This document shows positions 5,559 through 49,910 of a stretch of 64,000 nt of DNA, piece by piece (the stretch's first letter is position 1; the number at the start of each line of letters is the position of its first letter). The stretch is from Candidatus Tayloriibacteriota bacterium. GTDB taxonomy: Bacteria; Patescibacteriota; Minisyncoccia; Phycocordibacterales; PALSA-1337. The position numbers were made by a program, and so were the translations under genes. Location: NCBI GenBank assembly GCA_052034805.1, contig JBPOID010000004.1, positions 23,236-87,235 on the forward strand, read 5' to 3'. Under the pieces are notes generated by a model. That model had not been told where the DNA came from. It made no database searches and saw only the letters and a list, made by a program, of their open reading frames with translations.

Positions 5559-6695
5559 CTAAACCCCTTGAGTATTTAGATCTACACCGAAACTCATTTC
5601 TGCTGTATTTACGAAGGTATCCCAATCTGTAGTGAATGCTTGTGGTTCTAGATGATCGCTATTATTTTTCAAACCAGGAATCTTCTTTACTGCTGTACCT
5701 ATAGCCAAGAATTCTATTATTCCATTTCCTAATTGATATACATATGTCTTTACACCGACAACTTCATCTGCACCTATTTCATCAGCTTCTTTATTTATTA
5801 TAGACAAGGCATTCTCACGAGCTTCATATACGAGATGTGATAATTCTGGTATTTCCCCTTTCGTAAAAGATTTGAAAAATGAAGTTATTCCACCTACAAG
5901 CCCCAGCGAATAAACTGAAGTACCTATTAATATTTTCATAGGAGCATATCCCATTTTATTTAAATTCCACATTTCTTGTGGAGTAAGATCACTAGTTACA
6001 ACTTTATCATTAGGTAATGATGGATTATGAGAAGCTGTACCTATCATTAACATTTCTTGAAGACCTCCAGTTATGAGTGGAAGTATTGTGGTCTCTATAC
6101 CTACAACAGAGTTTGCATTATGTTTCTTTGCTTCATTTATAATTCTTTCCAATGCAAGATGTCTTGTTTTATTGAAAATATCTGAGAATTCCTTTATCTC
6201 ACCACGAGCAAGAGTTTTCAAGGCACCTATTATACCACTCGCTATACCTATAGAATAAGCAACATTACCGAATACGAATCTCAATGGTTTATATCCGCAA
6301 TCAGTTTGTGCATACATATCCTGACCGTCTGTAGATGTACTAAAAGCAAATTCTTCTTTAGCACCATTATTTGATTTTGTATGTAGAGAAGAACCAACAG
6401 AAAGAAATTCTATATTTCCACCATGAAAGACTAATTCGCTTGTAACACCAGTAATACCTATAGCTCCCCTATCTTTCGCCTCTTTTTCCATTCTTTCTAT
6501 AGCAGATGCACGACCTTCTTCTATAAGATTAGTGAATTGTTCAACTTCTCCACCGATAATAGCTCTTATACCAGAACCTATACCTCTACCGAAACCCAAA
6601 GCATGCACACTATTACCAACCACTAGATCCCCCGCTTTATAACCTATTTTATCCAAACAATACATTTCATTTCCAGAAAGACCTGTTGTTTTCAT
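5559..6695 (-). CDS. Protein with three tandem DUF74/YbjQ-like domains (putative heavy-metal-binding family)
   Basis: Three internal repeats of about 105 aa each, each showing the YbjQ pattern (G..IRAIIGGE...A...EA...GA.G..GV......G..EF...GTA). Confidence 0.65.
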   Translation of the reverse strand: MKTTGLSGNEMYCLDKIGYKAGDLVVGNSVHALGFGRGIGSGIRAIIGGEVEQFTNLIEEGRASAIERMEKEAKDRGAIGITGVTSELVFHGGNIEFLSVGSSLHTKSNNGAKEEFAFSTSTDGQDMYAQTDCGYKPLRFVFGNVAYSIGIASGIIGALKTLARGEIKEFSDIFNKTRHLALERIINEAKKHNANSVVGIETTILPLITGGLQEMLMIGTASHNPSLPNDKVVTSDLTPQEMWNLNKMGYAPMKILIGTSVYSLGLVGGITSFFKSFTKGEIPELSHLVYEARENALSIINKEADEIGADEVVGVKTYVYQLGNGIIEFLAIGTAVKKIPGLKNNSDHLEPQAFTTDWDTFVNTAEMSFGVDLNTQGV

Positions 6696-17202: not shown

Positions 17203-18738
17203 ATGAGAGAAGATAATATACAAAAAGATTTTGTACAGAAACCAATCCGTACATTTGAAAGTGATATAGCAGAAGCTCTAGGCAAAGGGGCTTCTCTAGC
17301 AACTATTGCTATAGCAGAACAGAAAAGAAGAGATGAGGAAAGGAATAAAAATCAAAATATAATAAAAGAAGAAATAAATAAAGAAATAAAGGAGAATAAA
17401 AATGAAGAAGAAAAAGAAAAAACTCCAGAAGAAAAATTAGAAGAAACAGAAGAATTAGCAGAAAAAGCAAAAGATAATCTGCAGGCAGAAATAGAAAATA
17501 TAACTGGAGAAAAAAGACAGAAACCCGTAGACCAAACACAGTCAACACAGAGAGCACAGAATCTAAGACCAGATAATTCTACAGTTTATAAAAAGCCACA
17601 ATTACCTATAAATCCAGCACCAGATATGGTGAGAAGTTCTCCTATAGTCGATATAGCACCTGATATAGAAAGGGAAAAGGGCGTGTTTATAGAAAATAAT
17701 ATTCCAATACCTATACCACCAAAACCAGAAATAAAGAAAGAACCTATTATACCTAAGCCAGTAGAAATACCTGTTAAGATACAAGAGCAAATTCCTATTG
17801 CAATACCAGTAATGATTCCAAAGCCAGCACCGAAAATAGAAGAGAAACCAATAATTAAACCTTTACCTAAAATAGAACCATTACCGAAACCAGAAGCAAA
17901 AATAGTAAAGGCAACAATAAGTAATATAGACGAGGATGAAGAAGAAAATACAAATAAAGAAAAAAGAAATATATTAAAACCGTTAATTACTATTGTATTG
18001 ATAATATTATTTATTGGTGGGGGAATATATGGAGCTTATTATGTATATGAAAATAATCTATTATCTACAACCACTCCAATCGAACAGAAAATAATAATAC
18101 CTAGTATAATATCTCCTGATAAACAAATGGCTTGGAATATAGATAGTATAAATAAAACCCAACTTATACCTCAAATATATTCTCAATTTAAGAAAAATAC
18201 TCAAGAAAAAGGAAAGGTTCTTGAGTTAATACTGACACAAAAAGTGATTGATTCAGAAAAACAAACAGATAAAGCTATTTCTGGATCAACTTTCATAGAA
18301 AAATCTGGTATATCTATGCCTGATGTATTAAAGAGATCACTTACAGATAGATGGATGTTGGGATCTTATTCAGAAGAAGACGGTAGAATAACTCCATTTA
18401 TAATACTTACAACCGATTTCTTCCAAAACACCTTTGCAGGCATGCTTTCTTGGGAAAAATCTATGCCAGAAGATTTATCTTTGATATTGAATTATAGAGA
18501 AAAAGCTAAAGAAATTGATTTATTTGCTTCTTCTACTATATCTTCATATTTCAATATAAGAGGTAGTTTCGTAGATAAACAGATAATGAATAGGGATCTG
18601 AGAGAGTTTAGGGCTTCAAATGGAGAATTGTTATTCTTATACTCATTTATCAATAAAAACAGCCTGATAATAACGACAACAGAGAGTAGTCTCATAGATA
18701 TAATCAAGCGTGTTGAAAAGCAAACATATATAAGGTAA
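17203..18738 (+). CDS. Hypothetical protein: E/K-rich and Pro-rich low-complexity N-terminus, one TM helix, C-terminal globular domain
   Basis: 511 aa; PKPEIKKEPIIPKPVEIPVK-type repeats; [28 protein letters not shown]. Confidence 0.5.
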   Translation: MREDNIQKDFVQKPIRTFESDIAEALGKGASLATIAIAEQKRRDEERNKNQNIIKEEINKEIKENKNEEEKEKTPEEKLEETEELAEKAKDNLQAEIENITGEKRQKPVDQTQSTQRAQNLRPDNSTVYKKPQLPINPAPDMVRSSPIVDIAPDIEREKGVFIENNIPIPIPPKPEIKKEPIIPKPVEIPVKIQEQIPIAIPVMIPKPAPKIEEKPIIKPLPKIEPLPKPEAKIVKATISNIDEDEEENTNKEKRNILKPLITIVLIILFIGGGIYGAYYVYENNLLSTTTPIEQKIIIPSIISPDKQMAWNIDSINKTQLIPQIYSQFKKNTQEKGKVLELILTQKVIDSEKQTDKAISGSTFIEKSGISMPDVLKRSLTDRWMLGSYSEEDGRITPFIILTTDFFQNTFAGMLSWEKSMPEDLSLILNYREKAKEIDLFASSTISSYFNIRGSFVDKQIMNRDLREFRASNGELLFLYSFINKNSLIITTTESSLIDIIKRVEKQTYIR

Positions 18739-25210: not shown

Positions 25211-26197
25211 ATGAAGCAATCGAGCCTAAAAAACCTAGCCTTTATAGTTATTGCCTTGATCGTAATTGGGGCGGTTTTTGCTTTTGCAGAATATAATAAT
25301 AAATCCAGTAAAAATCTAGTATATGATTCATCTACAATAGCATCCAATAAAATAGAAAGTGTAGATCCAGAATTGAAAAATAAAGATACAGATGGAGATG
25401 GTCTAAAAGATTGGGAAGAAACACTTCTTGGTACTGATATAAAAAACAAAGATACCGATGGAGATGGAACTTCCGATGGAGCTGAAGTCAAAGCTGGTAG
25501 AAATCCATTACTAAAAGCTACGAATGATAAAATAGATAGTAATACATCAACAAAATCAGAATCCCAAAAAGAAAAACTAACAAATACAGATATTTTGGCT
25601 AGAGATTTCTTTGCTAAATATATGGAATTAAAACAAGTTGGACTCGCTGAAGACAAAGAAAGCCAACAAGAAATGATAAGTCAGGTACTAAAGGGTGGAT
25701 TGGTAATAGAAAAACCAAAAGACTATACAGTAAGTAATGTAAAAATAATTACAGATAATAGCAAAGAAGCATTAAAGAAATATGGTAATGATACAGGAGC
25801 TATTTTCCAGAAATATATAATAAAAGATTCCAGAAATGAAATGGTAATAGAAAAAGAAGCTTTAGATAAAGAAGATTTTACAGTAATTAAAGAATTAGAT
25901 CCTATTATTTTGAGTTATAAAAATATGCTTTCTGGATTATTAAAAGTGAATACACCACAAAATATAAGTAATATTCATTTAGATATTATAAATAGTTTAA
26001 ATGGTTTAATATTTGCCGATGAATCATTAAAAAAAATAGAATTAGATCCAGTATCTGGAGTACAGGGAACAGCTAATTATCTCGAATCAACAAAGAAATT
26101 AAATATCGCTTTTAATAATTTAAAAAGTAGTTTGAATAATCAAGGAATAATGTATACGAAAGACGAATCCGGTAGTTTCTTTATATCATCAAATTAA
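25211..26197 (+). CDS. Secreted or membrane-anchored protein with thrombospondin type-3-like Ca-binding repeats (DKDTDGDG, two copies); first gene of the T4SS-like operon
   Basis: N-terminal TM/signal; DxDxDGxxD repeats. Confidence 0.5.
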   Translation: MKQSSLKNLAFIVIALIVIGAVFAFAEYNNKSSKNLVYDSSTIASNKIESVDPELKNKDTDGDGLKDWEETLLGTDIKNKDTDGDGTSDGAEVKAGRNPLLKATNDKIDSNTSTKSESQKEKLTNTDILARDFFAKYMELKQVGLAEDKESQQEMISQVLKGGLVIEKPKDYTVSNVKIITDNSKEALKKYGNDTGAIFQKYIIKDSRNEMVIEKEALDKEDFTVIKELDPIILSYKNMLSGLLKVNTPQNISNIHLDIINSLNGLIFADESLKKIELDPVSGVQGTANYLESTKKLNIAFNNLKSSLNNQGIMYTKDESGSFFISSN

Positions 26198-27841
26198 ATG
26201 AAAAATAATAATTTTAAAAAACTAATTTCTGCAACTCTTGTAATAACAATTATATTTTCATCTTTTGCTTTTGCATTACCGAAAAAAGCCGAGGCACAAT
26301 GGGTGGTTACAGATCCTGGAAATATAGTACAGTCAACAATAACAGCAGCAAATACTACATCTAGTGCATTCTCTCAATATTCACTACAATTAAAAGCTTT
26401 CGTTCTTGATACATTAGCAACATCACTTGCAAAACAAGTTATAAGACAAATAACAGCAAGTGTTGTGAATTGGATAAATTCTGGATTCGAAGGCAGTCCA
26501 TCCTTTATCACTAATCCTGGAGCATTTTTCCTAGATGTTGCTGATCAAATAACAGGAGAATTCCTAGCAAAAGCTGGTGGACCATTAACGGCTTTATGTT
26601 CTCCATTCAGTATAGATATACGTATTGCATTATCGTTCAAATATCATCCTAATATCCAGAAAAGATATGCCTGTACAATCGGTACAATAATAAAAAATAG
26701 TAGCAATGCAATAGCTGGAGCAAATATAAATGGATTTACGGCAGGGGATTTCAAACAGGGTGGTTGGCCAGCATTCGTATCTCTTACAACTGAACCTCAG
26801 AACAATCCTTATGGAGCATATCTCACAGCTGATAGTGAACTTTCTCTAAGAGTAGCGAATGCTCAATTGCAACAGAAAGACGAACTTAATCAGGGTGGAG
26901 GATTTCTTTCATATAAAAAATGTAAAGATGTTGATGTTATAGATCCTAGTAGTATATCTGGCTCCGATATACCAGCAGGCGACTCTGGAGATAATGGTTC
27001 AAATGTTGTTGGTTCAGATTATATTGGCCCAATAAATTCTCCTGCGGGTCAAGTTAGAAAACAGAAAAAATGTGAAATAGTAACTCCAGGATCAGTTATA
27101 ATGGGTGCCGTAGAAGCAAATGTAAATGGTCCTTTGCATGAATTACAATTAGTTGATTCCATAAACCAAATCGTTAACGCTCTTTTTGCTCAATTAGTAA
27201 CACAAGTATTAACAAAAGGATTAGGAGCAGTTAGTGGAAATGGACCTAGTGATTCATCTTCATATATTTATCAAATACAAAACGAAAAGAATGGCGAAAT
27301 AGAACAAGTAAGTTCTACAAAAGCAGAATTATTAAAGAATCTAAGTACGTATTTGGATAATGCATTCAAATATAAAGACAATAAAGATCAATCATTAAAT
27401 CTTGCATTAGCAGCAAAGAGTTCTTATGAGGCAGTGAAAACATGTTATGCAAATAAGATTTCAAACAATCAACCTCCATTAACACAATCACAAATGTCTC
27501 AGGCTCAAGATAATATAAATGCTATTGATTCAATAATAACAAGCAATGTAACACCACTGGCATCTAGATTATTAAGTGAAGCACAAAAAGCAGACACTCG
27601 TTATCAAACTCTAATAGATATAAAGACTAGAGCAAATGCAGCAAAAACAGTAAATGAATTATCAGCTCCTAGTACAGAATATTCTCTTATGTTACAGAAC
27701 AGAACTCTAGTTTCTGTTATAGATATTTCAGATTCTAGTCAGGAATTCGAATCAGTCAAAACAACAACAGATACAATGAGACAGGATGCCAATAGGAAAT
27801 TACAGGAATGCCAATTATTCCCTAGTTATGGATTATTTTAA
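26198..27841 (+). CDS. Secreted hypothetical protein (signal peptide), T4SS-like operon
   Basis: 547 aa; cleavable signal MKNNNFKKLISATLVITIIFSSFAFALPKKAEA; start abuts the previous stop. Confidence 0.5.
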   Translation: MKNNNFKKLISATLVITIIFSSFAFALPKKAEAQWVVTDPGNIVQSTITAANTTSSAFSQYSLQLKAFVLDTLATSLAKQVIRQITASVVNWINSGFEGSPSFITNPGAFFLDVADQITGEFLAKAGGPLTALCSPFSIDIRIALSFKYHPNIQKRYACTIGTIIKNSSNAIAGANINGFTAGDFKQGGWPAFVSLTTEPQNNPYGAYLTADSELSLRVANAQLQQKDELNQGGGFLSYKKCKDVDVIDPSSISGSDIPAGDSGDNGSNVVGSDYIGPINSPAGQVRKQKKCEIVTPGSVIMGAVEANVNGPLHELQLVDSINQIVNALFAQLVTQVLTKGLGAVSGNGPSDSSSYIYQIQNEKNGEIEQVSSTKAELLKNLSTYLDNAFKYKDNKDQSLNLALAAKSSYEAVKTCYANKISNNQPPLTQSQMSQAQDNINAIDSIITSNVTPLASRLLSEAQKADTRYQTLIDIKTRANAAKTVNELSAPSTEYSLMLQNRTLVSVIDISDSSQEFESVKTTTDTMRQDANRKLQECQLFPSYGLF

Positions 27842-27844
27842 TTC

Positions 27845-29881
27845 ATGAAAAATAAAAGCAATAAAATTCTAATACTGTCAGCAATAATGGGAATAGCATT
27901 CTTTGTATTACCTTTTATTACAAATGCAGCAGGGGATGGATTCATACAGGGTGTAGGTATATCAGTGGTGAATAGTGCTATAGCGAATATAGCGAATTTC
28001 TTCTTGATGTTATCATCATCTATTGTTTTCTGGACTGGAATGTTGCTGAGTATATCAGTAAGAATAACTCTAAGTATAGGAGATATATATAATTCTATAG
28101 AAGGAATGAAATCAGTATGGGTAACAATAAGAGATTTATCAAGTATATTTATAATATTCTCATTACTTTACTATTCTATAAGGACAATACTTGGCAATGC
28201 AGAAGTCAGTATGAATAAACTGATAATAAAGATATTCATAGCGGGTATAATGATAAACTTCAGTCTATTCTTTGTAAAAATTGCCGTTGATGCTTCGAAT
28301 ATTATTTCGCTTCAATTCTATAATGCAATAACCCCAAGTGATAGTGCTAGATTGACTAATATTGATATTAAACATCTTGCTTCTGTAGAAAATACTATAA
28401 AAGATGCTAGTGGTCTTTCAAATATCTTTATGCAAAGTCTAAAATTACCTAAAATCTATGAAAATACAGGTGTGTTCAAATCAACAGATGTAACAGCAAG
28501 TATAGGATTCGCAGCTATAGCAGGAATAGTAATGATGGTGGTGGCTGGATTATCTTTCTTGGCTGCTTCTTTATCTTTCATAATAAGAACGGCAATATTA
28601 CTCACGATTATGGCTTTGTCTCCATTATTCTTTGCTGGAATGATTTTCCCAGATATAAAGAAGAGGGTTTCAGATAAAATGTCTGGTTTTCTATATAGTC
28701 AATGTGTATTTATGCCTGTTTATTTCTTTCTACTTTATGTAGCTCTTAGAATAATAAGTGATGATGGATTCATGAGTATATTCAATCAGAGTGTAACGAA
28801 TCCATCAGGAGCTACAAATAGTCCAGTATTCGTAGGTACAATAATCCAATACACAATAGCCATAATATTTATAAATCTACCTTTATTAGCTGCGATAGAA
28901 CTCGGTGGTCAGGGTATGAAATGGGCACCACAAGCAAAAGATATTGGTAAATTGTTGGGAGGATTTGCAGGTAGAAATACTGTTGGAAGATTGTCCAGAT
29001 GGGCCGGAGAATCATTTGACAAAGGTGCTGCTAGTGGAAAGGTATTCGGTAGTGAGAATCTATACAGACTAGGAAATAATCCACTCATGTCCAAAGTTAG
29101 TCAGGGTATTAGAGGTGGACTAAGATCTGGTGAAGAATCAAAATATGGTGGATCTGGAAATCTAAGTTCAGTTGAGAAAATAGATAAAGCAAGAAGAGTA
29201 GAGTTAGATACAATGAACAGACAAACTACCAGAAAGTCAGAAATAAGTAGTATTCTAGATAATCGAGCACCTCTAGATCTAAATTCTATAGATAATACAA
29301 AGAGCATAAAAGAAATAGAGAATATAAAGGGAGTATTAAGTAAAATGAATTCTAAAGAAATAGAAAAACTTGGAGATAAATTAAAAGATTCATATGTTGC
29401 GGCAGCTATGAATTCAAAACAAGCTGAAAATATTATGAAATCAGATATGCCAGATAAAAATAAAGAAGATTTTATGAAATCTAGAGCAGAAGGACTGAAG
29501 ATAGCTATGAAAACAATAAGTTCAGGAGATTTTGAATCAATAATGAAAGAGGATTTCAATGATGAACAGAAAAAAGATTTGAAAGATCATAGAGTAAATA
29601 TACTAGAAAAAGCTATAGCATCCGGTAAATCAGATGAAGTCAAAGAATATATGAAAAATCTGTCTGCAAAAGAATTGGCAAAATTAAAGCCCGAGACATT
29701 AAAAGATGTAAATCTAATTAATAATTTATCTCTTGCTCATTTGAAAGAAATGGAAGATACACTAGATAGAGGAACAAAGAGAGTTATAGCTAAACATATT
29801 CGTAACCTACCAGCAGACAATGAGCATAAGGCATACGGATATATGCAAGATGATAAAAACTTTGATAGATGGTCAAAATAA
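27845..29881 (+). CDS. VirB6/TrbL-like polytopic inner-membrane protein with a C-terminal hydrophilic extension
   Basis: 678 aa; signal plus 6 or more TM helices in the first 350 aa, then a charged tail. This topology is typical of VirB6/TrbL. Assignment rests on architecture and context, not on a sequence motif. Confidence 0.5.
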   Translation: MKNKSNKILILSAIMGIAFFVLPFITNAAGDGFIQGVGISVVNSAIANIANFFLMLSSSIVFWTGMLLSISVRITLSIGDIYNSIEGMKSVWVTIRDLSSIFIIFSLLYYSIRTILGNAEVSMNKLIIKIFIAGIMINFSLFFVKIAVDASNIISLQFYNAITPSDSARLTNIDIKHLASVENTIKDASGLSNIFMQSLKLPKIYENTGVFKSTDVTASIGFAAIAGIVMMVVAGLSFLAASLSFIIRTAILLTIMALSPLFFAGMIFPDIKKRVSDKMSGFLYSQCVFMPVYFFLLYVALRIISDDGFMSIFNQSVTNPSGATNSPVFVGTIIQYTIAIIFINLPLLAAIELGGQGMKWAPQAKDIGKLLGGFAGRNTVGRLSRWAGESFDKGAASGKVFGSENLYRLGNNPLMSKVSQGIRGGLRSGEESKYGGSGNLSSVEKIDKARRVELDTMNRQTTRKSEISSILDNRAPLDLNSIDNTKSIKEIENIKGVLSKMNSKEIEKLGDKLKDSYVAAAMNSKQAENIMKSDMPDKNKEDFMKSRAEGLKIAMKTISSGDFESIMKEDFNDEQKKDLKDHRVNILEKAIASGKSDEVKEYMKNLSAKELAKLKPETLKDVNLINNLSLAHLKEMEDTLDRGTKRVIAKHIRNLPADNEHKAYGYMQDDKNFDRWSK

Positions 29882-30678
29882 TTAAAATTATGGAAAATGA
29901 AAATTCAAAAATAAATATGGATGCAAATTTAATAGTAAAAACAATGAGTTCTATTGGTACATATTCAAAATTAGAATCTATTGGAGAAAAGTATAATCTA
30001 ATGATAGATCAAATTGGCCAATTGGAAATAGATACAAGAATGGTAATGATAGGCAAGATAAAATCTGATGATTTTGTAGATACAATAGCCAAAAATCTAG
30101 AAATACCGAGAGAAACTGCTCAGAAAATAGCAGTGGATATAAACAATGAAATCCTAATGACAGTTCGTGAATCAATACGCAAAATGCAAGAAGGTGAATC
30201 TATTGTAGAAGAAAAGATTCCATCCGTACCGCCAATGCCCCCAAGACCTATAGCACAAATGAACACCGAAAGACCTATACCAGTACCAAATCCAATACAA
30301 ACTCCTAACTATAGTCGACCAATACCATCTACACCCCAAACTACATCTCCATATAATCCGCCAATACCACCTATACCTAAAGCTCCACCAGCTTCTCCAA
30401 TAAGAAATACAAATCTATCTGATATAGAAAGAATAGGTGGATTCACTATAGAAAGTAGACCTCTTTCTAATTCTCCTCAATACAATGATACAAATCCAGA
30501 TAGGGAAGAAGTATTAAAAGAAATAGAAAAATACGAAAATACTGGATCAAAAGATGGTATAAGTTTCGTTGATCATTTGCTTTCAAATCCAGTTTCAAAC
30601 AAAGAACAAATAAAAGTTATAAAACCAGAAGTAAAAAAAGATACATATACTACAGATCCTTACAGAGAACCAATATAA
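29869..30678 (+). CDS. Pro-rich hypothetical protein (overlaps previous gene by 13 nt)
   Basis: 269 aa; PPMPPRPI...PIPPIPKAPPASP low-complexity core. Confidence 0.45.
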   Translation: MVKIIKIMENENSKINMDANLIVKTMSSIGTYSKLESIGEKYNLMIDQIGQLEIDTRMVMIGKIKSDDFVDTIAKNLEIPRETAQKIAVDINNEILMTVRESIRKMQEGESIVEEKIPSVPPMPPRPIAQMNTERPIPVPNPIQTPNYSRPIPSTPQTTSPYNPPIPPIPKAPPASPIRNTNLSDIERIGGFTIESRPLSNSPQYNDTNPDREEVLKEIEKYENTGSKDGISFVDHLLSNPVSNKEQIKVIKPEVKKDTYTTDPYREPI

Positions 30679-30698
30679 TAATGATATAATCAACATAT

Positions 30699-31133
30699 AT
30701 GCGTTTCCAAGTACCACAATTCATAGAAGTTGAAGACAAAATATTTGGTCAATTTACCATAAAGCAATTCATATATATGGCGGGTGGCGCTGGATTATCG
30801 TTTGCAGTATACAGACTTATAGGATCATTTATATTTTCAATACCAATAATAATTGTAATAATGGCCTTTTCTGCAGCATTAGCATTTTATAGAATAAATG
30901 AAAGATTTCCTTTTATTTATATAGTGGAAGCAGCATTCAAATATGTATTTTCTAATAAACTCTATATATGGAAAAAAATGGAAAACAAAAAAGTGAATGA
31001 AGATAATACTGATCAAGAAATAAAGAAATATGCATCTGTTATGGTTCCGAAAATTTCTGATAGCAAATTAAAAGATCTTACATGGAGTCTGGATATAAAA
31101 GAGAGTATGTATACAAATAAAAATCAAAAATAA
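30699..31133 (+). CDS. VirB3-like small two-TM membrane protein (PrgI/TrbD analogue)
   Basis: 144 aa, two adjacent TM helices, sits immediately upstream of the VirB4 gene as in T4SS loci. Confidence 0.45.
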   Translation: MRFQVPQFIEVEDKIFGQFTIKQFIYMAGGAGLSFAVYRLIGSFIFSIPIIIVIMAFSAALAFYRINERFPFIYIVEAAFKYVFSNKLYIWKKMENKKVNEDNTDQEIKKYASVMVPKISDSKLKDLTWSLDIKESMYTNKNQK

Positions 31134-31766
31134 ATGCCAAAAGATAAAAAAACAACACAAGATTTCGTACCAATACAAGAAATAAGAGATGGTATTGTTA
31201 TATTAAAAGATAATTCAATGAGAGCGATAGTATTGGCTTCTTCTCTTAACTTTGCATTGAAATCAGCCGATGAACAAAATTCTATTATTTTCCAATTCCA
31301 AAATTTCTTAAACTCTTTAGATTTTTCTGTACAGATTTTCGTACAATCAAAAAGATTAGATATAAGGCCATATATAGCCCTTTTAGAAGAAAGATACAAG
31401 GAACAATTAACAGAATTGATGAAAATACAAACTAGAGAATATATAGAATTCATAAAAACTTTCGTAGAAAATTCTAGTATTATGACAAAAAGTTTCTTTA
31501 TAGTTATACCTTATACTCCACCTCTTATATCTTCTAATTCTAATCCATTAGGAAATCTGATAAATAAAAAAGAGGGTCCAAAAGTTACACCGAATGAACA
31601 ATTCAATGAATACCGAAGTCAGCTAGAGCAGAGAGTAGGGGTTGTTGAGCAAGGATTAGTAAGATGTGGTGTTAGAGTCGCAGAACTTGGAACAGAAGAA
31701 GTGGTAGAATTATATTATAAGATTTTCAATCCTGGAGAAACAGAGAAACCTATACAGATCAATTAA
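31134..31766 (+). CDS. VirB4/TrbE N-terminal domain encoded as a separate ORF
   Basis: QDFVPIQEIRDGIVILKDNSMRAIVLASSLNFALKSADEQNSIIFQFQNFLNSL matches the N-terminal (CagE_TrbE_VirB) domain pattern of VirB4 proteins. Followed by three in-frame TAA codons. Confidence 0.6.
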   Translation: MPKDKKTTQDFVPIQEIRDGIVILKDNSMRAIVLASSLNFALKSADEQNSIIFQFQNFLNSLDFSVQIFVQSKRLDIRPYIALLEERYKEQLTELMKIQTREYIEFIKTFVENSSIMTKSFFIVIPYTPPLISSNSNPLGNLINKKEGPKVTPNEQFNEYRSQLEQRVGVVEQGLVRCGVRVAELGTEEVVELYYKIFNPGETEKPIQIN

Positions 31767-31780
31767 TAATAAAAAATAAA

Positions 31781-33601
31781 ATGGGTATTTTTAGCAAAAT
31801 GTTTGGTAAAAAAGAAGATCCGAAAATAGTATCTCTTATGCCACAAGAGATCTATGAAGCTGGCGTTCTCGAATTAAAGGATATTATCGCTCCTTCAGCA
31901 TTGAAAATAAATCCAAAAGAAATAAATCTTGGAGAAAAGATCGCTAGAACATTTTTCGTTATATCTTATCCTAGATTTCTAACTGATAGTTGGTTTGCCC
32001 CTATAATAAACCTAGATAAGGTCTTTAATATTTCTATTTTTATTCATCCTATAGATACAGCGAGAATATTGAGACATTTCAGAAAGAAGGTTGCCGAAGT
32101 ACAGAGTCAAATAGCTCAAAGGGAACAGAAGGGGCTTGTTAGAGACCCTTTACTTGATACTGCATATCAAGATCTAGAAGCATTGAGAGATAATCTAATG
32201 CAAGCTCAAGAAAAGATTTTTGATGTTGGCGTATATATAACTATATATGGTGATTCTGATTCTGAATTAGATAAAATAGAATCCGAAGTAAAATCCATAC
32301 TAGAATCAAAATTAGTATATATAAAACCAGCATTATTCCAACAAGAAAGTGGATATAGAAGTGTATTACCTATAGCAAATGATGAACTTATGGTTCATTC
32401 TAAACTCAATTCCTCACCACTTTCATCATTATTTCCATTCGTATCTTTCGATTTAACATCAGATAAGGGCATACTTTATGGAATAAACAGACATAATTCA
32501 TCTCTAGTACTTTTCGATAGATTTTTATTAGAAAACTATAATTCCGTAACCTTTGCCAAGGCTGGAGCCGGTAAATCATACAATGTTAAACTAGAAATAC
32601 TTAGAACTTTAATGTTCGATACTGAAGTTATCGTTATAGATCCAGAAAAGGAATACGAATACATGGCAGAAGCAACAGGTGGCAAATATTTTAATATATC
32701 TCTTAATTCTGAACATCATATAAATCCTTTTGACCTTCCTATGCCTAGAGAGGATGAAAGCGCTTCGGATGTTTTGCGTTCAAATATAATAAATTTGGTT
32801 GGACTTTTCCGTATAATGCTTGGCGGATTATCCCAAGAAGAAGATGCAATAATAGATAGAGCTATTACAGAAACTTATGCATTAAAGGATATTACACCTG
32901 AATCTAATTTCAAGAATATTGAGCCACCACTTCTATCTGATTTTGAATTAGTGCTTGCTGGAATGGAAGGAGCTGAATCTCTAGTAGAAAGATTGAGTAA
33001 ATATACAAAGGGAACATGGTCAGGATTCATAAATAGACCTTCAAATGTTGATATAAACAAGAAATTCGTCGTTTTCTCATTGCGAGATATGGAAGATGAA
33101 TTGAAACCAGTAGCAATGTATATAGTTACACATTATATATGGAATGCCATAAGAAAACAGTTGAAAAAGCGTCTTCTAGTCATAGATGAGGCTTGGTGGA
33201 TGATGAAATCAGAGGATACGGCTTCATTCCTACTCAGTTTGGCAAAGAGAGGTAGAAAATATTATTTAGGTTTGGCAACAATAACACAGGATGTTGATGA
33301 TTTCCTTAATTCTCCTTATGGATTGCCTATTATCACGAACTCTTCTATACAAATTCTATTGAAACAAAGTCCAACTTCAATAGATAAAATACAAAAAACA
33401 TTTAATCTAACCGATGAAGAGAAATATCTTCTATTAGAATCAGATTTGGGGGAGGGAATATTCTTCGTAGGACTTAAACATGTAGCCATAAAAGTTGTGG
33501 CTTCTTATACAGAAGATCAAATAATAACTACGAATCCAGCCCAAGTTCTAGCCATAAAGAAAGCCAAGGAAGATTTGGAAAATAGCGAAAATAGTAGATA
33601 A
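31781..33601 (+). CDS. virB4: VirB4/TrbE/PrgJ-family T4SS ATPase (C-terminal ATPase portion)
   Basis: Walker A FAKAGAGKS, Walker B LLVIDEAWWMM; 606 aa; with the preceding 210-aa ORF this totals about 816 aa, typical of VirB4. Confidence 0.85.
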   Translation: MGIFSKMFGKKEDPKIVSLMPQEIYEAGVLELKDIIAPSALKINPKEINLGEKIARTFFVISYPRFLTDSWFAPIINLDKVFNISIFIHPIDTARILRHFRKKVAEVQSQIAQREQKGLVRDPLLDTAYQDLEALRDNLMQAQEKIFDVGVYITIYGDSDSELDKIESEVKSILESKLVYIKPALFQQESGYRSVLPIANDELMVHSKLNSSPLSSLFPFVSFDLTSDKGILYGINRHNSSLVLFDRFLLENYNSVTFAKAGAGKSYNVKLEILRTLMFDTEVIVIDPEKEYEYMAEATGGKYFNISLNSEHHINPFDLPMPREDESASDVLRSNIINLVGLFRIMLGGLSQEEDAIIDRAITETYALKDITPESNFKNIEPPLLSDFELVLAGMEGAESLVERLSKYTKGTWSGFINRPSNVDINKKFVVFSLRDMEDELKPVAMYIVTHYIWNAIRKQLKKRLLVIDEAWWMMKSEDTASFLLSLAKRGRKYYLGLATITQDVDDFLNSPYGLPIITNSSIQILLKQSPTSIDKIQKTFNLTDEEKYLLLESDLGEGIFFVGLKHVAIKVVASYTEDQIITTNPAQVLAIKKAKEDLENSENSR

Positions 33602-33631: not shown

Positions 33632-34018
33632 ATGGATGAAAAGCCTAAGAAAAAATACAGAATAGGAGGATTTGCTGTAGTAATACTTTTTATTATTGCT
33701 TTATTTTTTGATCTTATAAGTTTTATACCCTTTGTAGGCGATATATTCTGGGTATTTATGAGTTATTATCTGTATAAAACAGGTCATGGATTATTGAATC
33801 TGAGAAGATTAGTGCCTATTATGGTGTCATTTATTACAGAATCTATACCTTTTCTATCTAGTTTGCCTTCGATAATGGCTGCTACTATTAGTATTATAAT
33901 GCTATCCAGAATCGAAGATAAAACTGGAATATCCATAACATCACATACAAATATAGCAAAACCACAAATTCAAGTTCCACTGTATCAAGACGGCAGACGT
34001 TTACCAAAAAAAGTGTGA
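33632..34018 (+). CDS. Small three-TM membrane protein, T4SS-like operon
   Basis: 128 aa, hydrophobic. Confidence 0.5.
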   Translation: MDEKPKKKYRIGGFAVVILFIIALFFDLISFIPFVGDIFWVFMSYYLYKTGHGLLNLRRLVPIMVSFITESIPFLSSLPSIMAATISIIMLSRIEDKTGISITSHTNIAKPQIQVPLYQDGRRLPKKV

Positions 34019-34031
34019 TAAAATAATACTA

Positions 34032-35036
34032 ATGAAATTCCATAAAAAAATAATTATATCAATAATATTTTCATTAGGTCTTTTGGGTTTAGTTCATACT
34101 ACAAATGCACAAATACCTGATTCTATAGATGGAATAGATATTTCTTCAAGTCCAGATAATCCCAACCCAGGACAAAATGTAAATATAAATATTGAGAGTT
34201 ATTCAACCGATTTAAACGGTGCATCTATAGTGTGGATGGTTAATGGTAAGAATTATAAACAGGGAACAGGTATCAAATCCATAAGCATAAAGGCTCCAGA
34301 ACTAGGAAAAAATACAAATATTTTAGTAGCTATTATGACAATAGAAGGAAAACAAATAAAAAAAGCAATTACTATAAAGTCAGGCAGTATTGATCTGGTA
34401 TTAGAAAGCGATGGCTATATACCTCCACTATACAAGGGAAGATCATCATTTGCATATCAAAACTCAATAAGACTTATAGCTGTACCGCATCTAGCGTCGA
34501 ATGATGGGAAAGAATTAGATCCTAAAACTCTATTATATACTTGGTCAGAAAACGACAAGGTTATACAGAATCAGAGTGGCTATGGAAAGCAGGTATTAGT
34601 ATTGAAGGAGGAAACACCGAAGGAAATGAATATGAAAGTTGAAGTCAGCACAAAAACAGGAAGTCAAAAAGCTGTTTCATATATGGTATTAAATCCAACA
34701 GATCCTTCTATTCTATTTTATGAAGAAGATCCTTTATATGGAATACTTTACAATAAAGCATTACTGGGAGACAAAACATTAGATAATCAAGAAATAAATA
34801 TAGTATCTGCACCATATTATTTCAATATGTTAGAGAAAAATTCACCATTATCATTTATATGGAGTATAAATAATCTAGAAAGACCCGAACTATCTACAAG
34901 TCAAACAATAACCCTAAGATCAAAAGGGGATACATCAGGTAGTTCGCTTGTAAAACTAGAAATACGTAATAGCAATGAGATTCTGCAAGGAGGAAGTAAT
35001 AGTATCAAATTGAATTTCAATAAGAAAAATCAGTAA
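34032..35036 (+). CDS. Secreted beta-rich hypothetical protein (signal peptide)
   Basis: 334 aa; signal MKFHKKIIISIIFSLGLLGLVHTTNA. Confidence 0.5.
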   Translation: MKFHKKIIISIIFSLGLLGLVHTTNAQIPDSIDGIDISSSPDNPNPGQNVNINIESYSTDLNGASIVWMVNGKNYKQGTGIKSISIKAPELGKNTNILVAIMTIEGKQIKKAITIKSGSIDLVLESDGYIPPLYKGRSSFAYQNSIRLIAVPHLASNDGKELDPKTLLYTWSENDKVIQNQSGYGKQVLVLKEETPKEMNMKVEVSTKTGSQKAVSYMVLNPTDPSILFYEEDPLYGILYNKALLGDKTLDNQEINIVSAPYYFNMLEKNSPLSFIWSINNLERPELSTSQTITLRSKGDTSGSSLVKLEIRNSNEILQGGSNSIKLNFNKKNQ

Positions 35037-35051
35037 ATAATATACAAATAA

Positions 35052-36173
35052 ATGAAAAAGAAAATTTTATACATATTTATAATAATCATAATTTCTCAAG
35101 GCTTAGGAAGTAGAATAGCTCTAGGTGCAATAGACAGTTATAAATTAATAGAACCAATACCTTGTATAGATGGAACTGGAAATGGCTGTGAAAATGGTTT
35201 AATAAATAATGTTAATGTTGATACATATATAGCTTATATATTCAAAATAGCCATAGCTTTGGCAGGATTTCTGGCTGTAGTAATGATTATATATGGAGGA
35301 TTTACATATATGCTGAGCGAATCCATAACAAGCAAAAGTGGTGCAAAAGATACGATAAAGAATGTCGTATTAGGATTATTAGGGGCATTATCATCATTTT
35401 TAATACTTCAGACTATCGATCCTAGATTAGTAAACATAAATACAACAATACCTAAAATACAAGTTAAAGACGATAGTAGTGTAGACAGATTTGCAAATCA
35501 ATTAAGTTCGGATATGAAACAAATGTCTGCAGAAACAAGAGATCAGGTTGCTAAAATGAAAGATGAGTCAGATAAACTAAAACAGCAAATAGATTCTTTA
35601 AAAAAAGAAATTAGCGATAATCCATCAAATAAAAGTGATTTAGAAAATCAATTATATGAATTAGAAAATCAATGGAAAAAAGCAGAAGCAAATGTAGCAA
35701 AAACTTCTGCAATATCTATAGGTACTACCTATTTCAGAAATGCTTTTGATACAATAACCAAAGAGAATGCTGGTGAGGATTTGGTGGATACTAATTCTGT
35801 AGATAAACATAAAATAGACCTGCAAAAAGCAATGGATTTATACAAAGACAAAGCAAATAATATTGGGGAATACAATACTTCTCAAGATATTACAAATATT
35901 GAAAATTATTATCTCGATCAGATTGATAATGAAAGAATGTTCGTTGATTCAATAGTCAATGGTTATACCAAAGTAGCTAATAGAGTATCTATAAATTATT
36001 CTGTAAGAAAACAATTAATAGAGGATTTCTTGAAAAAATATGAGAATCCAGAAACTGATCCTTATTATCAAAAATATAAACTTTATCCAAATAACGAATT
36101 TATATTAGATAGTTATAAAAAATTACAAGATTCTAGAGCTTCTAGAGCAAAAGAAGTATTAAAGAAAATCTAA
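35052..36173 (+). CDS. VirB2/TrbC-like pilin-type N-terminal module (signal plus two hydrophobic helices) fused to a long coiled-coil domain
   Basis: Signal peptide, then YIAYIFKIAIALAGFLAVVMIIYGGFTYM and KNVVLGLLGALSSFLILQTI helices (VirB2-like topology), then about 230 aa predicted coiled coil. Confidence 0.4.
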   Translation: MKKKILYIFIIIIISQGLGSRIALGAIDSYKLIEPIPCIDGTGNGCENGLINNVNVDTYIAYIFKIAIALAGFLAVVMIIYGGFTYMLSESITSKSGAKDTIKNVVLGLLGALSSFLILQTIDPRLVNINTTIPKIQVKDDSSVDRFANQLSSDMKQMSAETRDQVAKMKDESDKLKQQIDSLKKEISDNPSNKSDLENQLYELENQWKKAEANVAKTSAISIGTTYFRNAFDTITKENAGEDLVDTNSVDKHKIDLQKAMDLYKDKANNIGEYNTSQDITNIENYYLDQIDNERMFVDSIVNGYTKVANRVSINYSVRKQLIEDFLKKYENPETDPYYQKYKLYPNNEFILDSYKKLQDSRASRAKEVLKKI

Positions 36174-36179
36174 TAAACC

Positions 36180-37439
36180 ATGAAAAAAATATTAATAACA
36201 TTACTAATACTCGGAATAATAGGTGGTGGTGCTTATTATTGGTTTTTTTATAAAAATAATACAGATTCAACAATAGAAACAGAAACCCCAACAGACAATA
36301 CTCCTACAAAGAAATTCACCCCAATCAATCGCTCAAACACAAATACAAATAATACAGAGAAAGTATCAACTTCAACAAAAAATACAAATATTGAAAATGT
36401 TAATAATACTGTAAAGATGCCTGCATTAAGAAAGATAAGCGATGTACCAGTAGGGGGTTATATGGCAAGTAGTACAGCTAGTTCTACAGTTATAAGATAT
36501 ATAGATCGTGGTACAGGACATATATTCGAAACTAGAAGTGATACAAACTCCGTTGAAAAGATTTCTAATACCACTATAGCTAGAGTTTATGAGAGTTATT
36601 GGAATAATACTGCAAATAAAGGCATATTTAGATATATAAAAGAGAATTCAAATATAATAACAAATTTATACGGAGAAATATTGCCATCATCTAATACTGG
36701 TACAACATCAGATAAAACAGCTTATCAAACAAAAGGATTGATACTGTCTTCGAATATAACAGAAATGGCTATATCACCCAAAGGAGATAGACTATTTTCA
36801 TTCTATAATGAAGATAATGGGGGAGTGGGCTATATATCTATGTTAAATGGTAGTAAAAATACTAAATTATGGAATACTCCATTCAAACAACTTTATTTTG
36901 ATTGGCCTGAAGAAAATACTATAGTAGCAACGAATAAACCATCCGGTTATTCATTCGGATATTCATATACAATAGATGCAAAAACTGGAATATCAAAAAA
37001 GATAATAAATCAGATATTAGGTCTATCGGTGAAATTAAGTCCTGATGCAAAAAATGCAATTCTTTCTTCTGGTGGTAGTAATATATCTACATTCTTATTC
37101 AATATTAAGAATAATTCTTATCAATCTGTAATCTTTAAAACCTTAGCAGAGAAATGTATTTGGAGTAAGATTAGAAATAATATGATTTATTGTGCTGTTC
37201 CAACAGAAATACCACAAGGATTATATCCAGATGATTGGTATAAAGGAAAAATATCTTTTACAGACAGAATATGGAGTTTCAATATAGATTCTGGGGAAGT
37301 TCATATGTTAGCCGATCTATCATCTCTAGCAAAAACCTTTATTGATACTATGAATTTAAAATTAGATAGTAAAGAAAACTTCTTATATTTCATAAACAAA
37401 AACGACCTAAGTCTATGGTCATTAGATTTGAATCTTTAA
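36180..37439 (+). CDS. Membrane-anchored T/N-rich protein with a probable beta-propeller-like C-terminal domain; last gene of the operon
   Basis: 419 aa, N-terminal TM, T/N-rich linker. Confidence 0.5.
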   Translation: MKKILITLLILGIIGGGAYYWFFYKNNTDSTIETETPTDNTPTKKFTPINRSNTNTNNTEKVSTSTKNTNIENVNNTVKMPALRKISDVPVGGYMASSTASSTVIRYIDRGTGHIFETRSDTNSVEKISNTTIARVYESYWNNTANKGIFRYIKENSNIITNLYGEILPSSNTGTTSDKTAYQTKGLILSSNITEMAISPKGDRLFSFYNEDNGGVGYISMLNGSKNTKLWNTPFKQLYFDWPEENTIVATNKPSGYSFGYSYTIDAKTGISKKIINQILGLSVKLSPDAKNAILSSGGSNISTFLFNIKNNSYQSVIFKTLAEKCIWSKIRNNMIYCAVPTEIPQGLYPDDWYKGKISFTDRIWSFNIDSGEVHMLADLSSLAKTFIDTMNLKLDSKENFLYFINKNDLSLWSLDLNL

Positions 37440-48230: not shown

Positions 48231-49910
48231 CTATTCTTCTATTTCTACTACTCTTTCTAATTCTTCTATTGATGTTATTCCTTTCAATACTTTAATAATT
48301 CCATCTTGTTCCATTGTGAGTATACCTTGAGGCTTAGCAGCTAATGCAATTTCTCTATCGCTACTACCTATTTCCACAGCTTTTTCTACTGATTCGTCCA
48401 TAAGTATTCCTTCGTATATACCTATTCTGCTCTTGTATCCTGTTTGACTGCATTTATCACAACCTACTGCTTGCCATATCTTGCCATTTTCTAATTCTTT
48501 ATTAGGAATTTGTGTTTTGTCATAAATAGAATCTATAATTTTATTTATTTTCTCTTTATTTTCACCTTCTAAAGGAATTTCTTTTTTACAATAAACACAT
48601 AGTCTTCTTAGAAGTCTTTGTGCTAGAGATATACTAACAGATGATGCAAATATTTTTGGATTAATTCCCAAATCCATAAGTCTAGGGAATGCTCCCGCAG
48701 CATCATTTGTGTGTAGGGTAGAGAATACCAAGTGACCTGTTAATGCAGAGTTTATCGCTATATTCGCTGTTTCACTATCTCTTATTTCACCGATCATTAT
48801 GATATCGGGGTCTTGTCTTACTGTGGCGCGTAATCCTTCCAAGAATGTATAGCCTTTATCATTCACCTGTGTTTGTACTATACCAGGTAGATGATATTCT
48901 ATTGGATCTTCTATAGTCACTATCTTTACTGTAGGATTGTATATTTTCTTTATAAAAGCATATAGAGTTGTTGTCTTTCCCGAACCTGTAGGTCCTGTTG
49001 TAAGTATCATTCCATTTGGCTTATCTATTTCTTTTAAAAGAATACCCAATAACTTTTCTGGTATACCTAATTCTTCTAATGGAACGCCAATACTTTTCGG
49101 ATTAAGCAATCTCATCACTATAGATTCACCGTATGATCCAGGTAATAGGGAAGTACGTATTTCTATATTTTCTTTATTTACATGAACACTGAATCTACCA
49201 TCCTGAGAATCTTTTTTTACATTTAGTTTTAATCCAGATAGAAGTTTTATTCTAGATAATAGAAGATTATATGTTTCTGAATCAAAATCTATTATTTTTA
49301 TCAATACTCCATCTAGTCTATATCTCAGTCTTATATATTTTTCTTCTGGTTCTATATGTATATCTGATGCATTCAGAGATAATCCACCAGCGAGTATGGT
49401 TTCTAATATTCTAGAAACTCTATAGCTTTTCTTCATTGCCAATGTTTCTTCGAGAAGAGATGTTATACTAGGTAAACTCTTTGCTTTTTCTACAATACTT
49501 CCTATTTCTTCGCTGGATATTTCTAATGAGCCAGCTTTTGTTTCGTATGCAAAAGAAAGATCTTTATACGCTGACCATGCTTTCTCTAAACTCGCCATAG
49601 AACATATATATAATATAGGTTCATAGCCTTTTTTCTTTATTTCATCTAGTATTTCTTTAGTTTTTTCTAGCTCTGGATTTCTTGCGGCTAATTTTAGTCT
49701 CTTATCTATCAATGCAAAGGCTACTATTTTATTTTCTCTTGATGTTTTCTCATCTACAAATCTCAAAGCATCAGTGTTTATAGGTATAAGAGATAGATCT
49801 ATATACTCTATTCCATATTTTGCAGAGAGAAGTTGAACTAATTCCTCCTCCTCTTTCTTTAGAAGTTCTCCTAATTTTCTTTTTTGTTTGTCTTCATCGA
49901 ACTCTATCAT
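48231..49910 (-). CDS. pilB: Type IV pilus / type II secretion assembly ATPase PilB/GspE family
   Basis: Walker A TGPTGSGKTTT, Asp box, His box, C-terminal tetracysteine (CVYC...CDKC); 559 aa. Confidence 0.9.
   Translation of the reverse strand: MIEFDEDKQKRKLGELLKKEEEELVQLLSAKYGIEYIDLSLIPINTDALRFVDEKTSRENKIVAFALIDKRLKLAARNPELEKTKEILDEIKKKGYEPILYICSMASLEKAWSAYKDLSFAYETKAGSLEISSEEIGSIVEKAKSLPSITSLLEETLAMKKSYRVSRILETILAGGLSLNASDIHIEPEEKYIRLRYRLDGVLIKIIDFDSETYNLLLSRIKLLSGLKLNVKKDSQDGRFSVHVNKENIEIRTSLLPGSYGESIVMRLLNPKSIGVPLEELGIPEKLLGILLKEIDKPNGMILTTGPTGSGKTTTLYAFIKKIYNPTVKIVTIEDPIEYHLPGIVQTQVNDKGYTFLEGLRATVRQDPDIIMIGEIRDSETANIAINSALTGHLVFSTLHTNDAAGAFPRLMDLGINPKIFASSVSISLAQRLLRRLCVYCKKEIPLEGENKEKINKIIDSIYDKTQIPNKELENGKIWQAVGCDKCSQTGYKSRIGIYEGILMDESVEKAVEIGSSDREIALAAKPQGILTMEQDGIIKVLKGITSIEELERVVEIEE

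Follow-up and report, generated by a model that had tools for sequence, protein, structure and literature searches.

The VirB4 motor of a type IV secretion system (T4SS) in a Candidatus Tayloriibacteriota bacterium is very probably built from two polypeptides, in which a TrsD-like protein of 210 aa supplies the first half of the VirB4 N-terminal domain and a 606-aa protein supplies the rest, while the split between them appears to be ancient and to have been reversed by re-fusion in the Colwellbacteria-type Paceibacteria. The two genes, termed the N ORF and the C ORF, are located in a window of 64,000 nucleotides, the whole stretch of DNA that was analysed (contig JBPOID010000004.1, assembly GCA_052034805.1), and the coordinates are collected in Table 1. 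The assignment draws on homology, fold, colinearity, conservation, synteny and independent assemblies. The two-gene VirB4 is real, functional and already known, and the abundance of TrsD beside virB4 in Patescibacteria has been published.

Table 1. Features of the T4SS gene cluster (positions are those of the window).
Feature	Position	Strand	Remarks
TSP3-repeat protein	25211-26197	+	
DUF4141 protein	26198-27841	+	
Polytopic VirB6/TrbL-like protein	27845-29881	+	weak TrbL_3 on near-identical gene in L085
Pro-rich 269-aa protein	29869-30678	+	
PrgI/VirB3-like small membrane protein gene	30699-31133	+	144 aa; Pfam PrgI 3e-10
TrsD-like N ORF	31134-31766	+	210 aa, soluble; detached first half of VirB4 N-terminal domain
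Junction	31764-31780	+	TAA stop plus two in-frame TAA to 31772; 14-nt spacer; +2 frame offset
606-aa VirB4 ORF (C ORF)	31781-33601	+	606 aa
C ORF aa 1-228, second half of VirB4 N-terminal domain	31781-32464	+	TrwK alignment; TraC_F_IV
VirB4 C-terminal ATPase domain in C ORF	32465-33601	+	4AG5, P-loop_TraG
Walker A	32564-32578	+	GAGKS, C ORF aa 262-266
Walker B	33173-33193	+	LLVIDEA, C ORF aa 465-471
Downstream cluster genes	33632-37439	+	128-aa membrane, 334-aa secreted, 373-aa T4SS_pilin-like N-terminus, 419-aa protein

The product of the N ORF was recognized by the NCBIfam profile VirB4_plasma (2.1e-10), and it covers positions 6-142 of the 792 in TIGR00929 and positions 1-112 of the 752 in the CD1110 profile. 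It also matched positions 10-143 of the 201 in the NCBIfam TrsD/TraD profile (NF041427) with 4.6e-7, where the 29.8 bits obtained, below the curated cutoff of 200 bits, denote remote homology only. Nevertheless, it fits the functional definition of TrsD/TraD, namely a soluble homologue of the VirB4 N-terminus of ~200 aa that is encoded after a VirB3-like gene and before a VirB4 shortened at its N-terminus. The N-terminal gene is thus already named, as the TrsD/TraD family and as 'TraC-like' in Pfam (PF26593). The latter was tabulated as an unmarked match (E <= 1e-5) for the identical protein and all 120 homologues, whereas the local hmmscan against Pfam-A returned no family, PF26593 included, a discrepancy that is probably due to a difference in library version. 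In the PDB, the fold search alone gave a result, and the sequence search returned nothing meaningful (best Dcp2, E 0.66). The gene immediately 5' of the split VirB4 belongs to the PrgI family (40.9 bits versus a cutoff of 27), which places VirB4 beside VirB3, and its product displays TM-like hydrophobic stretches with a Kyte-Doolittle (KD19) maximum of 2.59.

The C ORF covers positions 184-733 of the same CD1110 profile (NF045971) with 373.1 bits, above the cutoff of 325; it was also assigned to Pfam P-loop_TraG (1.2e-26), and its residues 229-583 matched the VirB4 C-terminal domain 4AG5 with 1.1e-39 in phmmer. Its N-terminal 228 aa contain a match to Pfam TraC_F_IV positions 290-373, and residues 109-551 were aligned to residues 285-736 of TrwK, the full-length VirB4 of R388 (PDB 7O41/7O42/8RTB), whose N-terminal domain comprises residues 15-400 (PMC9259494). 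TrwK is a single 823-aa chain of a diderm system with an identity of about 13-15%, whereas two chains are encoded here, and the ATPase polypeptide does not harbor a complete N-terminal domain, positions 1-112 of CD1110 being found on the separate 210-aa ORF. The first-pass annotation had described VirB4 as two ORFs headed by a VirB3-like gene, of which the former resembles VirB4 N-termini and the latter, after three consecutive TAA codons and a change of frame, carries the Walker A/B ATPase. The gene layout and the resemblance are borne out by the profile matches, the stops and the frame change are read directly from the sequence, and both Walker motifs are present. However, the second ORF is not an ATPase only, as its first ~228 residues form the second half of the VirB4 N-terminal domain, and the fission therefore lies inside the N-terminal domain rather than between the two domains.

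The TAA of the VirB3-like gene directly abuts the ATG of the N ORF, which ends with ATC AAT TAA TAA TAA, the stop codon being 31764-31766. The 14 nt of 31767-31780 separate this stop from the ATG of the C ORF, and the frames of the two ORFs differ because (31781-31134) mod 3 = 2. A promoter and terminator scan found sites no more numerous than in shuffled sequence and none between the N and C genes. The two ORFs align end to end, without overlap, on natural fused VirB4 proteins of 778-800 aa from Colwellbacteria-type loci; in one of 797 aa (P0210), residues 1-214 align to N 1-205 and residues 225-796 to C 27-597. Alignment to full-length homologues, which the first-pass annotation had recommended, thus revealed complementary, colinear pieces with nothing missing at the junction. 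The junction maps to a gap-rich, lower-confidence linker of the fused orthologues, which has a pLDDT of 58-65 and is flanked by well-folded blocks in the AF2 model of the fused protein, where the N part shows the same secondary structure as in the stand-alone N model. In the 210-aa protein, the first ~200 residues of this N-terminal domain of VirB4 have become a separate chain, and the break is situated in a variable linker mid-way in that domain. The fused VirB4 of the Colwellbacteria-type Paceibacteria (e.g. P0342, GCA_016176525.1) occupies the orthologous locus with the same neighbours, and one such locus (L082) carries ksgA, a VirB6-like gene, PrgI, the fused VirB4, yidC, rnpA, dnaA and dnaN in synteny with the window. 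These proteins, whose identity is 41-43% for the N part and 54-56% for the C part, are encoded by one ORF, with a short linker where the window has a stop, a spacer and a start.

Three stops and a frame change that cut what is one gene in most T4SSs might be taken as an inactivating mutation, leaving a decaying, non-functional T4SS in this genome. It is, however, exceedingly improbable that this explains the split, given that neither ORF is shortened and the Walker motifs are intact, that a separate upstream N gene is present in 78 of 80 related species-level loci, and that the proteins are highly conserved among related species (45-84% identity in the N part, 67-91% in the C part). Moreover, dN (0.11-0.24) is far under the saturated dS; since dS is saturated for most pairs, only dN and two omega values are given, the latter about 0.07 where computable. 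Among 8000 scored matches of the N ORF, the best 120 are without exception stand-alone and 209-233 aa long, with 81-100% identity, and come from Patescibacteria MAGs, the source of all close homologues. In S. epibionticum, the homologue of TrsD is essential (PMC12102498). At the level of 50%-identity clusters, of which the homologues form 2428, 149 of the best 150 are not fused, and the extra length of the longer proteins examined consists of low-complexity tails. Between the two readings offered by the first-pass annotation, true domain fission is accordingly supported and inactivation is rejected. The split is an old, lineage-wide two-gene arrangement and not an event of this genome. An assembly or sequencing artefact breaking a single gene does have a precedent in a 600-aa 'split-like' protein (P0289), which is a fused gene with a 100-N scaffold gap. 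Such an origin is hardly credible here, as the junction is free of Ns and reads the same in three independent assemblies, which differ in sample and pipeline (Logan SRR34217542, ENA ERZ4216102 and ERZ27258480), a single frame would require the loss of three stop codons plus a frame change, and junction lengths and frames vary among related species.

The same variation bears on programmed recoding, by which frameshifting or readthrough would produce a single fused VirB4 from both ORFs. The A-rich junction TAATAATAAAAAATAAAATG is superficially slippery, and the fused orthologues indicate that a single chain is viable; on the other hand, the ribosome would have to pass three in-frame stops in a row, and the spacers of related loci range from a 4-nt overlap (-4) to 481 nt in all three relative frames, with TAA, TAG or TGA as stops. 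The order B3-N-C is kept in 74 of the 78 loci, while in one related locus (L018) a whole 23S_rRNA_IVP gene lies between the N and C genes, and in a single locus (L043) these two genes lie on opposite strands. Together with the conserved C ORF start (ATG GGx, 'MG'), these observations reduce recoding to a negligible probability. Somewhat less remote, but still very unlikely, is that the 210-aa protein is an accessory factor that arose as a paralogue, by duplication of the VirB4 N-terminus, and acts beside a complete VirB4 instead of forming part of it. Its annotation as a family of its own (TrsD/TraD, PF26593) would agree with this; by contrast, the 606-aa ORF is devoid of the region found on the 210-aa ORF, as reflected by the separate CD1110 segments, and the two pieces occupy separate, non-overlapping stretches of fused orthologues that are encoded at the same chromosomal position.

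With respect to the direction of change, the fused clade lies within the stand-alone N proteins, at a depth of six nodes, and is nested in 99 of 100 bootstraps, while it is strictly monophyletic in only 1 of 100. The neighbour-joining tree, with a midpoint root and about 207 columns, thus points to the fused state in Colwellbacteria-type Paceibacteria as a derived re-fusion. Two proteins of 600-601 aa (P0289 and P0385, 77-88% identical to the fused P0210) were regarded as candidates for recent fused-to-split transitions, but the claim was dropped because P0289, which begins inside the N-part tail, is artefactual. Long TrsD-like homologues of 300-440 aa were likewise considered as VirB3-TrsD fusions or truncated fused genes, and were rejected since what extends them is low-complexity sequence rich in Pro and Gln, which in those examined resembles neither PrgI nor VirB4.

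Among the closest described counterparts is the pSK41/pGO1 system (MPF_FATA, pGO1 subclass), in which VirB3-like TrsC, TrsD (227 aa) and VirB4-like TrsE (672 aa) are encoded in the same order and the trsC-trsD-trsE region has a 14-nt spacer, as in the window. Residue 34 of the C ORF aligns to residue 36 of TrsE (BLASTP 5e-34), and because the two N-termini correspond in this way, the break point is the same in pSK41 and in the window. The N ORF, in contrast, shows only remote similarity to TrsD of pSK41 (BLASTP E 0.036; hhalign E 0.004, probability 8%), so that common ancestry of both splits rests mainly on the break point and the gene order. The staphylococcal pSK41/pGO1 system is carried on plasmids, mediates conjugation and includes a relaxase as well as a VirD4-like protein, whereas no relaxase or coupling protein was found among the scanned ORFs of the window, which comprised all cluster genes and most ORFs >300 aa.

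In Patescibacteria, Quinonero-Coronel et al. 2025 (Microb Genom, PMC12102498) reported TrsD as the most abundant T4SS component, usually adjoining virB4, with 2272 homologues in 2221 assemblies, of which 1664 adjoin virB4. The window is one instance of the T4SS described there, without substantive difference: it is chromosomal, lies near ksgA, yidC, rnpA, dnaA and dnaN, has Paceibacteria-type homologues, and shares the set and order of VirB6-like, PrgI/VirB3, TrsD-like, VirB4 and pilin-like genes, with yidC, rnpA, dnaA and dnaN coming after the downstream cluster genes. The VirB6-like and pilin-like assignments are weak, the former relying on a weak TrbL_3 match to the near-identical gene in L085 (664 aa as called there) and the latter on T4SS_pilin at 2.7e-4, below cutoff. 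The same paper regards TrsD as a remote homologue of the VirB4 N-terminus, citing Guglielmini et al. 2014, in whose main text 'TrsD' was not found. The words 'split' and 'fission' are absent from its text, and it does not spell out that TrsD and the shortened VirB4 equal one complete VirB4, nor that a fused form exists in some lineages. The essential T4SS cluster of S. epibionticum, SEML1_0006-0019, was reported by Wang et al. 2023 (PMC10633639).

In R388, the VirB3, VirB8-tail and dimer contacts are made by the VirB4 N-terminal domain as a whole, the first of them in just 6 of the 12 VirB4 subunits. For the two-polypeptide motor favoured here, we infer that the virB3-like, trsD-like and virB4-core genes would be co-transcribed and translationally coupled, and that the TrsD-like piece would dock non-covalently on the remaining N-terminal domain to rebuild a complete VirB4. 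The VirB3-like membrane protein may then act as in R388, where VirB3 wraps the VirB4 N-terminal domain (PMC9259494), by wrapping this domain and anchoring the ATPase hexamer at the membrane. The split would be ancient, and its position corresponds to that between TrsD and TrsE in Gram-positive conjugation systems of the pSK41/pGO1 type; the two genes would have been re-fused in one Paceibacteria lineage, the Colwellbacteria type. It is doubtful, though conceivable, that the break is no neutral accident but a maintained design, which would allow the amount of the detached half-domain and the timing of its assembly to be controlled separately from the ATPase, and that the shared break point marks descent of the Patescibacteria system from the pSK41/pGO1 subclass; if true, nature would have supplied a control experiment in the Colwellbacteria re-fusion.

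The two-gene VirB4 leaves the current understanding of T4SS biology unchanged and is chiefly of use for annotation: what is found across these genomes as a 210-aa 'hypothetical protein' is to be treated as a part of VirB4, and the 600-aa VirB4 should not be labelled as truncated or as a pseudogene. For modelling and reconstitution of the Patescibacteria T4SS, it is useful to know that the motor consists of two chains, divided mid-way in the N-terminal domain where TrsD and TrsE of pSK41 also part, and the natural fused orthologues provide a ready design for a single-chain VirB4 construct of a system that is essential for epibiotic growth in the one tractable species.

The three-ORF layout described in the first-pass annotation was recovered in full, with its frame change and triple stop: a VirB3-like gene is followed by a gene for a TrsD-like protein (N ORF) and by a VirB4 ATPase gene (C ORF), as listed in the table. 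The N ORF ends in TAA TAA TAA, and 14 nt separate its stop from the next ATG, which opens the C ORF in another frame. The Walker A/B ATPase ascribed to the second ORF is present as well, and neither the N product nor the C product contains a transmembrane-like stretch. A promoter/terminator scan, in itself uninformative, found no terminator-like site between the N and C genes, and the TAAATG junction followed by a 14-nt spacing with no such site is compatible with co-transcription and coupled translation.

Features of the window and of related loci (L handles), with their positions
Feature	Position	Strand	Description
VirB3-like gene	30699-31133	+	144 aa; Pfam PrgI 3e-10, over cutoff; clear hydrophobic segments
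N ORF	31134-31766	+	210 aa; ATG abuts TAA of upstream gene
C ORF	31781-33601	+	606 aa; Walker A GAGKS, aa 262-266; Walker B LLVIDEA, aa 465-471
Pilin-like gene	35052-36173	+	373 aa; T4SS_pilin-like N-terminus (E 2.7e-4, under cutoff)
YbjQ_1 gene	5559-6695	-	378 aa; three tandem YbjQ_1 (putative heavy-metal-binding) domains
PilB-type T2SSE ATPase gene	48231-49910	-	3e-113; MshEN domain; ~15 kb from T4SS cluster
ORF between pnp and ComM-like gene	17203-18738	+	511 aa; no Pfam family at E <= 1e-5
23S_rRNA_IVP gene	L018:1495-1979		124 aa; PF05635 3.5e-40
Divergent arrangement	L043:4801-7761		TrsD-like and VirB3-like genes on strand opposite to VirB4 gene
Hairpin spacer	L006:5881-6001
Hairpin spacer	L055:5876-6001
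Hairpin spacer	L032:2609-2760
Hairpin spacer	L007:2887-2966
Hairpin spacer	L039:4031-4122
Hairpin spacer	L037:5847-5956
Hairpin spacer	L052:5166-5271

Among NCBIfam profiles, the N product matched VirB4_plasma (2.1e-10), positions 1-112 of 752 of the CD1110 family and positions 6-142 of 792 of TIGR00929, and reached the stand-alone TrsD/TraD family at 4.6e-7 (29.8 bits, far under the 200-bit cutoff); the C product covered CD1110 positions 184-733 (373 bits, cutoff 325). Nothing was found for the N ORF in the PDB by sequence. Foldseek with its AlphaFold2 model (63-sequence alignment, pLDDT 77.3, pTM 0.63) returned TrwK/VirB4 chains of R388 as all of the best 14 matches (E 3e-5 to 2.5e-3, probability 1.0), the following match appearing only at E 0.29, and these hits together with the profile matches to VirB4 N-termini bear out the VirB4 N-terminal likeness suspected earlier. 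In the solved-structure search, C residues 229-583 matched the VirB4 C-terminal domain 4AG5 (1.1e-39), and C residues 109-551 matched residues 285-736 of TrwK, the full-length VirB4 of R388. Since the TrwK N-terminal domain spans residues 15-400 (PMC9259494), this alignment assigns the first ~228 residues of the 606-aa protein to the second half of that domain and the 210-aa protein to its first half. Precomputed tables give PF26593 'TraC-like' for a protein identical to the N product and for all its homologues, whereas Pfam-A hmmscan of the ORF returns none, which probably reflects different library versions.

Searched against 1.84 billion cluster representatives, the N ORF yielded 2428 related clusters. 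All but one of the best 150 were not fused, most being 150-260 aa long, and in the longer non-fused members examined the extra length consisted of low-complexity tails. The exception was P0210, a 797-aa single-chain VirB4, whose residues 1-214 and 225-796 correspond to N residues 1-205 and C residues 27-597, respectively. More than 100 fused proteins of 775-807 aa were found, with Candidatus Colwellbacteria or Patescibacteria as source names. In the multiple alignment, the stop, spacer and start of the window map to a gap-rich, poorly conserved linker with a conserved block on either side; by this and by alignment of both ORFs to P0210, no residues are missing at the junction. The AlphaFold2 model of P0210 shares secondary-structure elements with the stand-alone N model over residues 1-207, and its residues 211-230 have pLDDT 58-65 between blocks of 82-90. 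The fused locus L082, on a 645-kb contig, carries genes for ComM-like, ksgA, VirB6-like, PrgI, VirB4, yidC, rnpA, dnaA, dnaN and a class A PBP, and this neighbourhood, common to the window, indicates that a single locus exists in two orthologous states, fused and split. Pro/Gln/Ala-rich low-complexity tails of 60-230 aa occur at the N or C terminus of the TrsD-like proteins P0244, P0221, P0197, P0206 and ~40 others, with no similarity to VirB3 or VirB4.

The split had been read either as a true domain fission or as an inactivating mutation. Assembly error was ruled out by the identical 210-aa protein and junction on contigs from three independent samples, each with its own assembler. In the database, the best 120 matches to the N ORF come from MAGs of Patescibacteria and Paceibacterota; all measure 209-233 aa and are 81-100% identical. 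Among 80 loci of distinct GTDB species (C part 67-91% identical), a separate N ORF lies directly upstream in 78 and none is fused; the remaining two are one cut by a contig end and L043, whose divergent arrangement, the sole case in the 80, stems from either a genuine inversion or an assembly error. Non-synonymous divergence is 0.11-0.24 with synonymous sites saturated, and omega is ~0.07 in the two computable pairs. Inactivation is rejected by this low non-synonymous divergence and by the retention of the N ORF, which, with the colinear fused orthologues, supports domain fission. Recoding into one chain was also dismissed: the spacer varies from an ATGA overlap of 4 nt to 481 nt, every relative frame and every stop codon is represented, and in L018 a gene for a 23S rRNA-intervening-sequence protein lies between the TrsD-like and VirB4 genes, which excludes programmed frameshifting or readthrough as a general mechanism. 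The hypothesis that the 210-aa protein is a paralogue was rejected. Long spacers (76-148 nt) between the N and C genes of relatives are imperfect hairpins, with short tandem motifs in one arm and their complements in the other (for example TACGAATA / TATTCGTA, varying by lineage), which may represent small palindromic elements between genes or hairpins with a regulatory role.

The plasmid pSK41 has the same order, namely trsC (a weak PrgI match), trsD (227 aa) and trsE (672 aa, VirB4-like), and likewise a 14-nt spacer. Direct similarity of the N ORF to TrsD is weak; in the BLASTP alignment of TrsE with the C product (5e-34), residue 36 of the former pairs with residue 34 of the latter, which places the break point in common. 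A neighbour-joining tree built from 138 N-part sequences and rooted at the midpoint puts the fused proteins together in a single group, which sits six nodes deep among the stand-alone proteins; the nesting recurred in 99 of 100 bootstraps. Together with the published occurrence of TrsD in most Patescibacteria classes (PMC12102498), this favours an old split that was later reversed by fusion in a single Paceibacteria lineage, the polarity being inferred from a simple tree. P0213, a stand-alone protein of 224 aa that groups within the Colwellbacteria-type clade of otherwise fused proteins, could have been split again secondarily or could come from a broken gene; P0289, which looked split near that clade, was discarded for a scaffold gap.

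The pilin-like product of the window bears a ~250-aa tail with weak matches to many coiled-coil families and is unusually long for a VirB2-like pilin. No relaxase or coupling protein was found among the window ORFs scanned, which comprise housekeeping genes and the PilB-type ATPase.

[quoted passage not shown] By analogy, the TrsD-like protein would dock on the remaining half of this domain in the 606-aa protein, the two would constitute a complete VirB4, and the VirB3-like protein may tether the assembly to the membrane.

TrsD is the most abundant Patescibacteria T4SS component: 2221 assemblies hold 2272 homologues, and 1664 of these homologues adjoin virB4. Within MPF_FATA it occurs only in the pGO1 subclass, it is essential in S. 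epibionticum, and the Paceibacteria cluster, found close to dnaA, dnaN, ksgA and rnpA, usually lacks a relaxase (Quinonero-Coronel et al. 2025, PMC12102498). The window fits this description on all points, and the two-gene arrangement is already known and ordinary for the phylum. The additions made here are small: a residue-level demonstration that the TrsD-like protein and VirB4 together are one VirB4, the location of the break at a variable linker in the middle of the N-terminal domain, a break point in common with pSK41, and a lineage in which the two genes have re-fused at the orthologous locus.
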